Positions 383-56,544 of a DNA stretch of 64,000 nucleotides are shown piece by piece. The position numbers and the translations under genes were made by a program. Every line of letters begins with the position of its first letter. Positions within the stretch are counted from its first letter, which is position 1. The notes below the pieces were generated by a model that saw nothing but the letters and a program-made list of their open reading frames with translations, ran no database searches and was not told the origin of the DNA. This DNA comes from an uncultured Candidatus Altimarinota bacterium. Lineage in GTDB: Bacteria > Patescibacteriota > Gracilibacteria > BD1-5 > UBA6164. The stretch is taken from assembly GCA_963518665.1 (NCBI GenBank), contig CAUQKR010000002.1, forward strand, positions 27 through 64,026, in the 5' to 3' direction.

Positions 383-4417
<4,035 letters not shown>

Positions 4418-51248: not shown

Positions 51249-52694
51249 TTATTTTGTGAAATATTCTCTAAATTTTTCTAAATCTTCAGTAATAAACATA
51301 TTTTTTCTAGTTTTTCCAGTTAATTTTTGTATAAAATAATAAACTGAAGGATTTTCCCAAATTCAAACTTGTTTTCTAAAATTTGAAGTTGTCAATTTTT
51401 CAAAATTTAATCCATTCAATTCAAAAAATTCTAAAACCCTTTGTTTTTGTTCTTCTTCAGAGAATTTTGTAAATCAAAGTTTTTCTCAAAAAGTTCTCAA
51501 ATCTTCTAAAGCCATATTTGAAATAGTTTTTCAGGTAGTTTTTACTACAAATTCATTAAATCTTTCATAAGATTTTCCTAAAGTTTTTTCTGCTAAAACC
51601 TCTCTTGTTATTTTTTTCAAACCAAAATGTTCTAGAGAAAATAAATCTTCTATTCCATTTTTTTTCAAAATATTTTTTAAAAATTCTTTTGTTTCAGATT
51701 CATCAAAAACTTTTACTTCTGGGATATCTGAAAAACCTATTCTTCTAGCAAATTTTTTTATATCTTCTTCTCTAAATTCTCTTGCATATTTTACTCAAAT
51801 ATCAAAGAAAATTTCTTGAATTTCCCTATTTGACCATAAAAGTTTTCTAATTTCTCTAGTTTTTCAAAAACTTTTTAAAGTTTCATAATCATAAATTCCA
51901 TTTTCTCTCAAGAAATTTTTTACATTTTGAATTATATTTATATTTTTATCTTCAAGTAAGTTTTGTAAAATTTTATAAAAATCTTTATAACTTGATGAAG
52001 TTCTTACTCAAGAATTATAAAAATAAGAATAAAGTAATGGATTTTCTCTTACTTTTAAAAACAAAGATTTTGCTTTTCTAAAAGTTTTTTTTGAGCTATT
52101 AACACCATTTTCATCCAAAAATTTCAAAACTTCTTTTTCAAGTTCTATTTTTCACATTTTTGGAAAATTATATTTTTCTAAAATTTTTGTAATATTTTCT
52201 ATAGAAAAATTTACATATTTTCAATTAACTCAATTTTTTTGAAAAAAATATGCAACTCTTTTATTTTCTTGTATTTTTTTTACAAGTTTTCACATTTTTC
52301 CATAGATTAACTCATTTGTATAATTTACTCAATTTTTTCTAAAAAAATCAAAAACTTCAGCTTTTTGTTCTTCCAAACTTATTCTTTTAAATCAATTTTT
52401 TAATAAAAATCTTATAATTTTTTCTTTTGTAAAATTATCTTTATTTTTAAAATGTTTTAAAACAAATTGATTTTCAGAAGCCAAATCAAATACTTCTTCT
52501 CTTGACAACAAAAGCAAATCTAAATTATCTTTTATTCATTTTGATTTTAATTCCTCGATCAAAGCAAAATTTTCATCCAAAATATTTTCTACTTTTGATT
52601 TTGTTTTATTTATCTCATAATTTAATTTTTCGTGAAATTGTTCATTTTCTTCTTTTGAATAATTTTTATCCAAAATAGTTTCAAATTTTTCCAT
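51249..52694 (-). CDS. hypothetical repeat protein with about seven degenerate (F/L)xxxNG(V/I/F/L) helical modules (481 aa)
   Basis: RFLLKNGFK, DFFRKNGVN, YFFQKNGVN, KFLDENGVN, NFLRENGIY, NILKKNGIE, EFFELNGLN spaced about 35-70 aa apart. No signal peptide. Confidence 0.7.
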
Positions 52695-54166: not shown

Positions 54167-54196
54167 AAAAAGAACTTATTAAAAGTTCTTTTTTTA
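54165..54196. terminator. bidirectional terminator
   Basis: aaaaaaagaactt attaa aagttcttttttt. Confidence 0.8.
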
Positions 54197-55282
54197 ATTT
54201 TCTTCTTTTGAGAAAACTGATTTTTTACATCAAAAATTTTTTTCTAAAATATCATCATATTCATCAGTTTTTTCTGCATATTTTTTTATTTCATCTAGTA
54301 CTTTTTGTCTGTATTTTTCTTCAAAAATTTCTTTTAGCGGAATTCTATATGAAAATAAAATATTATTTTTATAAATACCAAATCTAAAAGGTGAAACATT
54401 TTCTTTCATCAAAAAATTATACAAATCTAATAATTTTTCGTTTCAAATTGTGTTTATTTCAGAAACAAAATACAAATATAAATTATCATAAACAAAGGCT
54501 CTAATTTCAGAACTTCATTTATAAAATCTCCAATATTCAAAGCCATTTCTTGCAATTATTGGATTTATTCAAAGTGATTTTATTGCTTCTTCTACAAATT
54601 CTTGTAAAAATTCAAGTTTTTTTTCTGCAAAAATATTTACATCTATTTTTGCTCAACAGTTTGGACAATAATTTGTTTTTTCTGTAATCAAGTTTCCACA
54701 ACTATTACATTTTAGAGAAAATTTTTCTCTATCTAGTTCTGAAACTTTTTTTAATTCTTCTAAAAGTTCATAATAAGGAATTGCAAAACCAGTATTATCA
54801 GCCTCTGTAAATTTTGAAGTGTTTATTCAAATAAGTTCTCATTTTGGAGTAACAAGTGGGCCTCAACTATTTCCAGGATTTATAGCTGCATCTGTTTGAA
54901 TCATTTTTCTTCAAGCCACAACTTGTTTAGAATTTGAAATAATTCATTCTGTAACTGTAAATCACATTCCAAAAGGATAACCTAAAACAAAAGATTCTGT
55001 TTTTTCAGTTATTTCTAAATCTAAATTTATTTTTACAACTTCAGCTATTTCTATTTTATTTTCTGGAGCAACAAAAGCTATATCTTTTTCTGGGTTTACA
55101 AAAATAACATTTGCAACAAATTTTTCTTCAGAAACATCTTCGATTGCAACTTGACGATTTCCAGCAACAACATGATAATTTGTAACAATTATATCATAAT
55201 CTTTTAAATAAAATCAGCTTCCAGTTCCTTCTGAAGTTATAACTCTAAAAATTGATTTTTTCAAATTTTGTAAATTTTCCAT
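54194..55282 (-). CDS. trypsin-like (S1) serine protease fused to a zinc ribbon and a YbjN/T3SS-chaperone-like C-terminal domain (362 aa)
   Basis: GTGSGFY..TNYHVV (His), EKDIAFV (Asp), DAAINPGNSGGPL (Ser), CNSCGN-x10-CPNCGA, then ...EYWRFYKGSSEIRAFVYDNLYLYFVSEINTIGNEKLLDLYNFLMKENV.... No signal peptide. Confidence 0.85.
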
Positions 55283-55306
55283 ATTAAAATTTTTTATTAT
55301 AAAATA

Positions 55307-56482
55307 TTATCTTGAAACAAAAATCGATAAAATAAAATCCAAAATTTTTCCTCCAAAACCTTTATCTTCTGACACATATCTAAGTTGAACAACTCCAGCA
55401 ACACTTTCACAAAGAATTCAAGCAACTTTTTCTGGAGCAGATCCTGACCCAATTTTTATCACTCTTTCTATTTCTGTTTTCATATTTTTTCACATTTCTT
55501 TATAATACATAGAATTGTACAAAATATGCATATTCATAACATATGAAAATATTTTCTTACCTTCTTGATAAATTCACAAAGCATCAGTTTGTCCTGGTCT
55601 TAAATAATTTGCTACATCTTCATTTGTAGAAATAAAACCAAAAGTAAAAAATGTATTTACTTTATAAATATTTTTTACAAAATCTTCTTTTAAAGTTTTT
55701 CTAAGTTCTCTCAAAAATTCTTTTCAATTGAAAACTATTGTTTCAAAAGGTAATTGTTTATCATAAAGTTCATTTATTTTGTCTCTGATTCTAAGTCTTA
55801 TAAGTCATTTTACATCAGTTACATAAAAAAGCATTTTGTAAGTTGTACTCAAAACATCCCAAGCAAAAGAATTTTGTCTTTCTTTTTCTAAATCAGAAAT
55901 TATTTCCAGGTTTGTATCAATTATTTCCATAAAAGTTTCATAAAATTTTTCTTGTTCTTCTACAGAATATTCTTCTACTTCAGGATTTCATACAACTTTT
56001 GCTCAAAATTCTTCACAAAATTCGTCTACACGATAAGTTGCAGTCAGACAAATATCTTCCAAAACTCTTGAAATATTTATATTTTCAAAAAGATCAAGTG
56101 GACAACTATATTTAAAAGCAAGTTTTTCTCACTCCAAAACAATCAAAGGAAGTCAATTATTGAAATTTATTTCTAAAATTCTTCTCAAAAGTGGAGTTTT
56201 ATTTGCTTCTGAAATATCCAAAAAATCTGCTGAAATCTCAATATTTTCTCCAGAAAAATCTACATCTAAAAATATTTTTTCATGAGGAATTCTGTAAACA
56301 AATTCTGAAACTTGATATTTTTTTACATCTTTTGCAAAAAACTTTAGCATTTCTTGCATTGCTTTTCTATATTCTCATTTTTCTGTAAGAATATCAGTTT
56401 TATCCCAAGATTCATAACAAAAATTTGCTGGTTTTTTAACTAATGGTTTAAAATATTTATAACCAGTTTTCATAAATGACAT
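55307..56482 (-). CDS. hypothetical protein with N-terminal YbjN/T3SS-chaperone-like domain and unknown C-terminal domain (391 aa)
   Basis: ...YQVSEFVYRIPHEKIFLDVDFSGENIEISADFLDISEANKTPLLRRILEINFNNGLPLIVLEGEKLAFKY.... Lies 24 nt upstream of the protease gene on the same strand. Confidence 0.75.
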
Positions 56483-56544
56483 ATTTTTTTATTTTAAAAA
56501 ATAATTTTCCTTATTATAAGCTTTTTTTACAAAAAGTAAAATTT

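Follow-up and report, generated by a model that had tools for sequence, protein, structure and literature searches.

The 64,000-nucleotide (nt) stretch analysed here, referred to as the window, is part of contig CAUQKR010000002.1 from an uncultured Gracilibacterium. Its nearest named relative is Candidatus Gracilibacteria bacterium HOT-871, and its G+C content is approximately 23%. The window was read with NCBI translation table 25 (TGA = Gly), and coordinates refer to the whole window. With this table, two long open reading frames (ORFs) are open on the minus strand. The upstream ORF (56482–55307) encodes a 391-amino acid (aa) protein, here called the partner, and the downstream ORF (55282–54194) encodes a 362-aa serine protease. 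Each protein carries a domain of the TY-chaperone superfamily, which includes the class I chaperones of type III secretion systems (T3SS) and the YbjN proteins. The two genes are referred to as the pair, and their features are listed below with the evidence for each in parentheses.

56513 to 56540, minus strand: promoter-like site, TTTACT-16-TATAAT (10/12), just upstream of the partner start codon (consensus scan)
55307 to 56482, minus strand: partner gene, 391 aa, code 25 (ORF and translation; AlphaFold2 predicted local distance difference test score, pLDDT, 90.6)
56003 to 56371, minus strand: partner N-terminal TY-chaperone (T3SS class I chaperone/YbjN-like) domain, approximately residues 38–160 (AlphaFold2/DSSP, Foldseek)
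55373 to 55975, minus strand: partner all-helical C-terminal domain, approximately residues 170–370 (about nine confident helices, no fold match)
55310 to 55366, minus strand: partner low-confidence linker and hydrophobic/amphipathic tail, ending …EDKGFGGKILDFILSIFVSR (pLDDT, tail comparison)
55283 to 55306, minus strand: 24-nt operon-like spacer between partner and protease (ORF coordinates)
54194 to 55282, minus strand: protease gene, 362 aa, code 25 (ORF and translation)
54758 to 55282, minus strand: HtrA-like (S1C-type) chymotrypsin-fold domain, residues 1–175, with triad His37/Asp67/Ser139 (Pfam, NCBIfam, PDB)
54644 to 54721, minus strand: CxxC-x10-CxxC zinc ribbon, residues 188–213 (motif and sub-threshold Pfam zinc-ribbon matches)
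54218 to 54628, minus strand: protease C-terminal TY-chaperone domain, approximately residues 219–355 (AlphaFold2, Foldseek, profile match to 2plg, hhalign)

The original prediction, made from the sequence alone, described two co-directional genes 24 nt apart. Read with table 25, the locus has this arrangement and the coordinates match exactly. With table 11, both genes are split into short ORFs and the active-site motif of the protease reads GNS*GPL. The partner gene contains 10 in-frame TGA codons and the protease gene contains 12. Five of the 12 protease codons (G113, G140, G152, G210, and G256) fall in columns that hold Gly in 95% or more of the 72 homologues. Together with the interrupted active-site motif, this indicates that the recoding of TGA is real. 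Table 11 was rejected because it breaks both genes up, and table 4 (TGA = Trp) was rejected in favour of TGA = Gly because TGA sits on conserved Gly positions. The promoter-like site is weak evidence for a promoter, as the AT-rich region contains 31 such sites where 22.7 are expected. A terminator scan found none.

The protease has the intact catalytic triad that was claimed for it, with His37 in TNYHVV, Asp67 in EKDIAFV, and Ser139 in GNSGGPL. The predicted zinc ribbon is present as well (C192-x2-C195-x10-C206-x2-C209). The catalytic domain matches Pfam Trypsin_2 (E = 4.7e-23), and the ribbon matches Pfam zinc-ribbon families below threshold. All 71 homologues that could be aligned keep His37, Asp67, and Ser139, and all 72 homologues keep the four cysteines of the ribbon. 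With both sets of residues invariant, the enzyme looks active and appears to be under purifying selection. By sequence, the closest PDB relatives are Deg1, HhoA, HtrA2, and DegQ (E = 1e-25 to 1e-20), together with AlgW. The Do family model TIGR02037 is matched with an E-value of 4.9e-39, within the protease region only (residues 16–173). This match scores 134.5 bits against a cut-off of 416.2 bits, and the HtrA, DegP, DegS, and DegQ equivalogs are likewise far below their cut-offs.

Two features of the HtrA family (MEROPS S1C; DegP, DegQ, DegS, HhoA, and human HtrA2) are missing. No PDZ domain is matched by Pfam in the protease at E ≤ 1. Inspection of the sequence reveals no hydrophobic N-terminal segment; the domain starts by approximately residue 16–21, and the homologues are alike in this respect. 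The chymotrypsin fold, the His-Asp-Ser triad, and the GNSGGP motif are common to the protease and the HtrA family. Both also have a peptide-binding-type domain C-terminal to the protease domain. Unlike the HtrA proteases, this protein has a zinc ribbon and a TY-chaperone domain instead of PDZ domains, has no signal peptide, and is encoded with an obligate partner gene. Judged by its sequence, the catalytic domain is a member of the HtrA family, although the protein lacks PDZ domains and an export signal and scores beneath the cut-offs of the family models. This agrees with the earlier expectation that the protease is not a standard HtrA/DegP orthologue.

The fold of the two chaperone-like regions was assigned from structure models. 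Residues 210–362 of the protease were modelled by AlphaFold2 from a 16-sequence alignment, and the partner was modelled from a 51-sequence alignment. The protease C-terminal model has a pLDDT of 85.1 and the element order alpha-beta-beta-beta-(beta)-alpha-beta-beta-alpha. The partner model has a pLDDT of 90.6 and a predicted template modelling score of 0.86. DSSP assigns the following elements to its N-terminal domain: H38–49, E57–59, E62–67, E70–75, E80–89, H95–108, E113–117, E120–128, and H134–159. In Foldseek searches of the PDB, the protease C-terminal domain is most similar to 2plg (Tll0839; E = 3e-5), followed by SrcA, SycT, SycH, ExsC, SigE, VecA, SycE, CesT, SicP, Spa15, InvB, and Escherichia coli YbjN. 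These matches are almost exclusively T3SS class I chaperones and YbjN, with probabilities of approximately 1.0. The partner N-terminal domain retrieves SycN-YscB (1xkp_C), 2plg, ExsC, SigE, CesT, SicP, and YbjN (6vu7), also with probabilities of approximately 1.0. The resemblance of both regions to YbjN and T3SS chaperones, which had been read from the residue pattern, is thus borne out by the models. At the sequence level, a profile of the protease C-terminal domain likewise retrieves 2plg (E = 3.6e-6).

The two chaperone-like domains are related to one another. In hhalign, positions 30–146 of the protease C-terminal domain align with partner residues 49–165 (probability 92.7%, E = 4e-7). A hidden Markov model (HMM) of the protease domain matches the partners of a divergent subfamily directly (E = 6e-12 to 3e-9), and it also matches one partner ORF with an E-value of 8.6e-4. 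The hhalign result and the direct matches in the divergent subfamily indicate that the domains are paralogues. The partner had been predicted to open with the same kind of domain; the segment LLRRILEINFNNGLPLIVLEG is present, and the partner N-terminal domain has the fold of the protease C-terminal domain and is homologous to it. The known members of the superfamily (SycE, SycT, CesT, ExsC, SycN-YscB, YbjN, AmyR, Tll0839/2plg, and PF22551) have the same fold as the domains in both proteins, but here one copy is joined to a protease and the other to a novel helical domain. The organisms that carry the pair are not known to have a T3SS.

Pfam detects this relationship weakly. Thirty-four of 51 members of the partner family match PF22551 (TY-Chap1) at E ≤ 1, with a best E-value of 1.6e-5, and the scores listed for members (18.6–22.3 bits) are all below the gathering score of 27 bits. 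When the protease C-terminal domain was searched in isolation, ten sequences gave one weak CesT match, and the fold search settled the assignment. Two stand-alone 147-aa proteins also match the protease-type TY-chaperone domain (G452:C18:68133-68531, E = 3e-12; G451:C41:18614-19000, E = 4e-11). Both are from large Bacteroidia genomes (6.7–6.9 Mb) and could represent paralogues of the module's chaperone domain that exist as free proteins.

The remainder of the partner is an all-helical domain and a short tail. The full-length partner from the window has no match in Pfam, NCBIfam, or PADLOC and nothing significant by sequence in the PDB. The isolated helical half of eight diverse members gives no consistent Pfam match. 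Weak matches of the partner family to Hypoth_Ymh and DUF4197 were dropped, as they do not recur except for one DUF4197 match (E = 0.03). The linker that follows the chaperone domain is conserved, and A161 and K162 are invariant. Within the last ~19 residues, the pLDDT is below 50 at positions 373–382 and 388–391, and a helix is predicted at 376–389. The end of the window partner, GKILDFILSIF, has a mean hydrophobicity of 0.59 and a hydrophobic moment of 0.56. By its sequence, this tail is too short for a transmembrane helix and could bind the membrane. Both proteins had been described as having no signal peptide or transmembrane segment. On inspection this holds for both N-termini, and the partner's short hydrophobic/amphipathic C-terminal tail qualifies it.

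The C-termini of the partners differ by clade. A MinD-like motif closes many of the partners: those of the Chitinophagales/Sphingobacteriales type end in (K)KGFFSKLFG(G), which closely resembles the membrane-targeting sequence of E. coli MinD, KGFLKRLFGG (PMC5471200). Both motifs are located at the extreme C-terminus after a flexible linker. The rest of the partner is unrelated to MinD, and other partner clades carry other tails. A comparison of hydrophobic moments across tails is not discriminating, as the MinD sequence itself scores 0.45.

The pair is strongly co-conserved across genomes, which agrees with the original prediction. A scan with the partner profile, with one genome per GTDB species, found 197 relatives, of which 80 loci were analysed. 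Seventy-nine of these are from Bacteroidota and one is from Gracilibacteria HOT-871. The Bacteroidota carriers include Bacteroides, Mediterranea, Alistipes, Muribaculaceae, Prevotellaceae, Porphyromonas, Chitinophagales, and Sphingobacteriales; within the Flavobacteriaceae they include Maribacter, Zobellia, Aquimarina, Flagellimonas, and Aequorivita. The protease is directly downstream on the same strand in 69 of the 80 loci, or 70 if a truncated copy is counted. This copy, in Bacteroides reticulotermitis JCM 10512 (L060), has a protease ORF that starts inside the domain and matches residues 134–358 only, which could reflect a pseudogene or a frameshift in the draft assembly. Two of the remaining loci end too early to judge, and eight have no downstream protease despite sufficient room. 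Spacing is short where the genes adjoin, with 24, 63, and 56 bp between the annotated genes on one strand in L001, L002, and L005, and gaps of 2 to 28 bp between the partner and protease ORFs in the listed Bacteroidales and Flavobacteriaceae loci.

The divergent subfamily has the same arrangement. Its partner ORFs are 423–482 aa long, and identity to the main family is approximately 22% for the partner and 32% for the protease. Of eight loci retrieved from the subfamily, seven have a same-strand downstream protease (360–374 aa) with the same C-terminal domain, which adjoins the partner directly in six loci and lies ~350 bp away in L100. Beyond the partner and the protease, no gene is shared universally across the 88 loci. 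A search of 1.84 billion proteins (E ≤ 1e-3) yields 642 clusters of the partner family at 50% identity.

In two natural fusions, a protease-type chaperone domain is attached to the partner. P0201 (537 aa) and P0134 (521 aa) belong to independent clusters, and each consists of a full partner followed by this domain (E = 1e-33 and 5e-30, respectively). Neither contains a protease domain or a zinc ribbon, and no protease gene adjoins the P0134 locus. The fusions argue that the partner and the protease C-terminal domain act together physically. Alternatively, there may be no interaction between the two proteins; adjacency would then stem only from shared descent or co-regulation, and each chaperone-like domain would homodimerise. 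Most T3SS class I chaperones and YbjN proteins are homodimers, and the genes are not adjacent in eight of the 80 loci, as this alternative would allow. However, seven of those eight genomes were searched and all seven encode a protease with the C-terminal domain elsewhere (E ~1e-63 to 1e-67). Adjacency also survives divergence to ~22% and ~32% identity, and the two genes moved together into the Gracilibacteria (described below). With the fusions, these observations make the absence of any interaction highly improbable. The partner and the protease are very probably coupled in function in one way or another.

Other genes and segments may link some members of the family to the membrane. Genes for the membrane proteins LemA and DUF3137 abut the pair in two bacterial orders, and their position is permuted (e.g., L037 4384–5986 and L029 8352–10050). 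The order is LemA-DUF3137-partner-protease in Bacteroides, Mediterranea, and Alistipes and partner-protease-LemA-DUF3137 in Aequorivita; in Aquimarina, some of these genes are set apart by other DNA. LemA and DUF3137 may be additional, optional components of the module (its third and fourth). One partner-family member, P0220, is fused to an apparent transmembrane segment (identified by eye), which is accompanied by an additional C-terminal region that matches no family. The tails, the segment in P0220, and the LemA/DUF3137 genes suggest that the module probably acts at the cytoplasmic face of the membrane, and none of these features is universal.

The distribution of the pair is patchy. A partner homologue is present in 18 of 301 evenly sampled Bacteroidota species (~6%), of which ~8 are clear orthologues and ~10 belong to the divergent subfamily. 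Within the phylum of the window's genome, one of 301 sampled genomes has a partner, and this is the window's own genome. Within its order, the partner is found in three of 151 genomes, all from one of 45 genera. An association across the candidate phyla radiation (CPR), which the original prediction had raised, is therefore not found. A CPR-wide distribution was rejected on these counts, and the home of the pair is the Bacteroidota.

This distribution bears on whether the pair is a general cytoplasmic quality-control machine, that is, an HtrA-like chaperone-protease with a co-chaperone, degrading misfolded or mislocalised proteins without specificity and having no dedicated switch or client. 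The proteases of the HtrA family serve in quality control, and they are the nearest relatives of the catalytic domain. TY-chaperone domains, which bind peptides in an unfolded, extended state, would suit such a role. In the Gracilibacteria the genes are located among hrcA, dnaJ, and mnmA, and the protease is the sole HtrA-like match in a reduced genome of 0.99 Mb (92.6% complete). However, a general machine would be expected to be widespread, yet the pair is absent from ~94% of the sampled Bacteroidota species and from 44 of the 45 genera of its own order. The large, conserved helical domain and the clade-specific tails suggest a specific role instead. General quality control is thus a doubtful explanation for the pair.

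The genomic position of the pair in the Gracilibacteria is congruent with acquisition as a unit. In sister genera, GT1, yggU, and mnmA are contiguous, with ~0.8 kb between yggU and mnmA. In the genus of the window, the two genes of the pair are cleanly inserted between yggU and mnmA. When the divergent subfamily is used to root a protease tree, the Gracilibacteria copies fall into a single clade (Shimodaira–Hasegawa-like approximate likelihood ratio test support of 94) that branches beside all main-family copies from the Bacteroidota. Within the Bacteroidota, the orders are largely monophyletic. Given the position of the Gracilibacteria clade, the tree singles out no donor lineage, and long-branch effects are possible. 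The cassette was most likely acquired horizontally by one Gracilibacteria genus, and the phyletic pattern points to the Bacteroidota as the source. Chitinophagales bacterium AC1.39 has two pairs (L015 and L042), and the L015 protease falls inside the Flavobacteriales clade, which indicates some transfer within the Bacteroidota. Both genes are inherited and transferred together.

Within the Gracilibacteria genus, divergence is much more rapid in the pair than in the neighbouring genes. Identity is 41–46% for the partner and 55–59% for the protease, compared with 87–95% for mnmA. The region around the pair also varies in other ways. A 481-aa repeat protein between recQ and mnmA (window 51249–52694, minus strand) is ~31% identical to its counterpart in HOT-871 (L012) and is evolving very fast; the neighbouring mnmA is 87% identical. 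In other members of the genus, approximately 880 bp separate yggU and the partner (L010, L011, and L012), and two small ORFs of 93 and 107 aa are annotated in this interval at 4195–4918 of L001. The gap of ~0.8 kb between yggU and mnmA in the sister genera is of similar size. The window is missing this ~0.9-kb stretch, and its yggU-like ORF stops 62 nt short of the partner gene. In a sister genus without the module, a different trypsin-like gene adjoins mnmA on the opposite strand (L116 2958–3425; 32% identical over ~155 aa).

Across loci, the genes that neighbour the pair are housekeeping, regulatory, or membrane-protein genes and not defence genes. In the Gracilibacteria they include the housekeeping genes hrcA, dnaJ, and mnmA. 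The neighbour families that were identified elsewhere include response regulators, a histidine kinase with tetratricopeptide repeats (TPR), LemA, and DUF3137. In Chitinophagales and Sphingobacteriales (L021, L022, L036, L038, and others), a divergently transcribed response-regulator gene is located immediately upstream, at approximately −750 from the partner. The upstream response regulator of L005 (2982–3638) has a GerE-type output domain. In the Flavobacteriaceae, a TPR histidine kinase and a LytTR response regulator are found 2–6 kb upstream on the same strand. PF22551 is defined as ‘T3SS (YopN, CesT) and YbjN peptide-binding chaperone 1’ and was described from ADP-ribosylglycohydrolase-centred systems (Iyer et al. 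2022; PMC9503650). That context is not present here: no ADP-ribosylglycohydrolase is among the identified neighbour families of the 88 loci, several recurrent families being left without identification.

The partner could also be a substrate of the protease, in which case cleavage would free or activate the helical domain as an effector or regulator in conflict/defence, toxin activation, or signalling. The patchy distribution (18 of 301 Bacteroidota species) and the transfer into one Gracilibacteria genus are reminiscent of accessory or conflict genes, and the rapid evolution of the partner within the genus relative to mnmA is consistent with this. The invariant A161 and K162 of the linker after the chaperone domain would also fit. 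In addition, the family member P0221 has a SUKH-1 domain attached, and domains of the SUKH type are typically found as immunity domains in polymorphic toxin systems. However, the Bacteroidota tree largely follows orders, and related genera contain near-identical proteins, unlike genes in an arms race. The partner fusions that are devoid of a protease persist as intact ORFs, and the helical domain has no toxin-like match. The PADLOC RT-Protease (type XI) profile is matched at positions 334–502 only, which is its protease part, and Pfam finds no reverse transcriptase domain in the protease. PADLOC gives no defence-system match for the partner. No phage or plasmid copies of the pair were found. 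Taken with the non-defence neighbours, these results give no positive evidence for the conflict, defence, or toxin-activation role that had been proposed, and cleavage of the partner as a switch is considered unlikely.

The reading that we prefer, and to which we give about an even chance, is that the pair is a self-contained cytoplasmic module for regulated proteolysis, made up of a protease and an adaptor and probably located at the membrane. The two TY-chaperone domains would heterodimerise. SycN-YscB is a precedent for a heterodimer of two paralogous chaperone subunits, and the natural fusions support this arrangement. The partner would then dock on the protease and serve as its adaptor or regulator. 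Once paired, the chaperone domains may hold an extended stretch of a client and either present it to the protease or gate access to the active site. They would thereby take over the role of the PDZ domains in DegS and DegP. The C-terminal tail of the partner would hold the complex at the membrane's inner face.

Several observations weigh against this proposal. Each chaperone domain could form homodimers instead. The window's own partner has no Pfam TY-Chap1 match, and it was assigned from the structure model and the profiles of the family. The helical domain of the partner has no match in the PDB (Foldseek), in BFVD (E ≤ 0.001), or, consistently, in Pfam. The MinD-like tail is clade-specific; the tails of the Flavobacteriaceae and Bacteroidales are Met/Gln-rich helices. 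The tail in the window, KGFGGKILDFILSIFVSR, is only loosely MinD-like, and the Gracilibacteria tails are more hydrophobic. The LemA/DUF3137 association is found in only ~14–16 of the 80 loci. LemA and DUF3137 are both absent from the window's genome, and the cassette works in this Gracilibacterium without these genes.

A more specific version of the adaptor proposal is that the partner senses the state of the membrane. The MinD-like tail would hold the complex on an energised, intact membrane, and loss of potential or integrity would release or rearrange the partner, with the paired TY-chaperone domains acting as the relay that switches the protease on. The triggers would be envelope stress, phage lysis proteins, or attack by competitors. 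This version is speculative and is held to have only a slim chance of being correct. If true, it would be a new, portable, two-gene proteolytic response triggered by membrane damage and a cytoplasmic mirror image of DegS.

The adaptor-protease proposal shares a concept with known proteolytic switches. In DegS, with outer membrane protein peptides and RseA, and in CalpL-CalpT-CalpS, an accessory peptide- or ligand-binding domain controls the cleavage of a specific partner or client. Homology to these systems is limited to the protease domain of DegS. Unlike them, the pair has no SAVED or nucleotide sensor and no conserved sigma or anti-sigma genes adjoining it. No published description of the pairing was found in the literature, and the earlier judgement that it is not a described system stands.

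HtrA proteases are extracytoplasmic quality-control and signalling enzymes that are regulated via PDZ domains. In the pair, the HtrA-type protease bears a new regulatory module and is accompanied by an obligate partner. In the preferred reading, the HtrA catalytic engine would be redeployed in the cytoplasm, and the regulator, which has the T3SS-chaperone/YbjN fold, would be present in two paralogous copies, one in the enzyme and one in its partner. This would give TY-chaperone domains a concrete, testable role outside secretion systems. The pair also defines an unannotated family that is found in gut Bacteroides and Alistipes, in marine Flavobacteriaceae, in Chitinophagales, and in one oral Gracilibacteria genus. 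Several of the carriers are culturable (e.g., B. cellulosilyticus, Zobellia, and Maribacter), so the function is directly testable. The intact cassette moved into, and was kept in, a genome of ~1 Mb with a reassigned stop codon, which suggests that the two genes suffice for a useful function.

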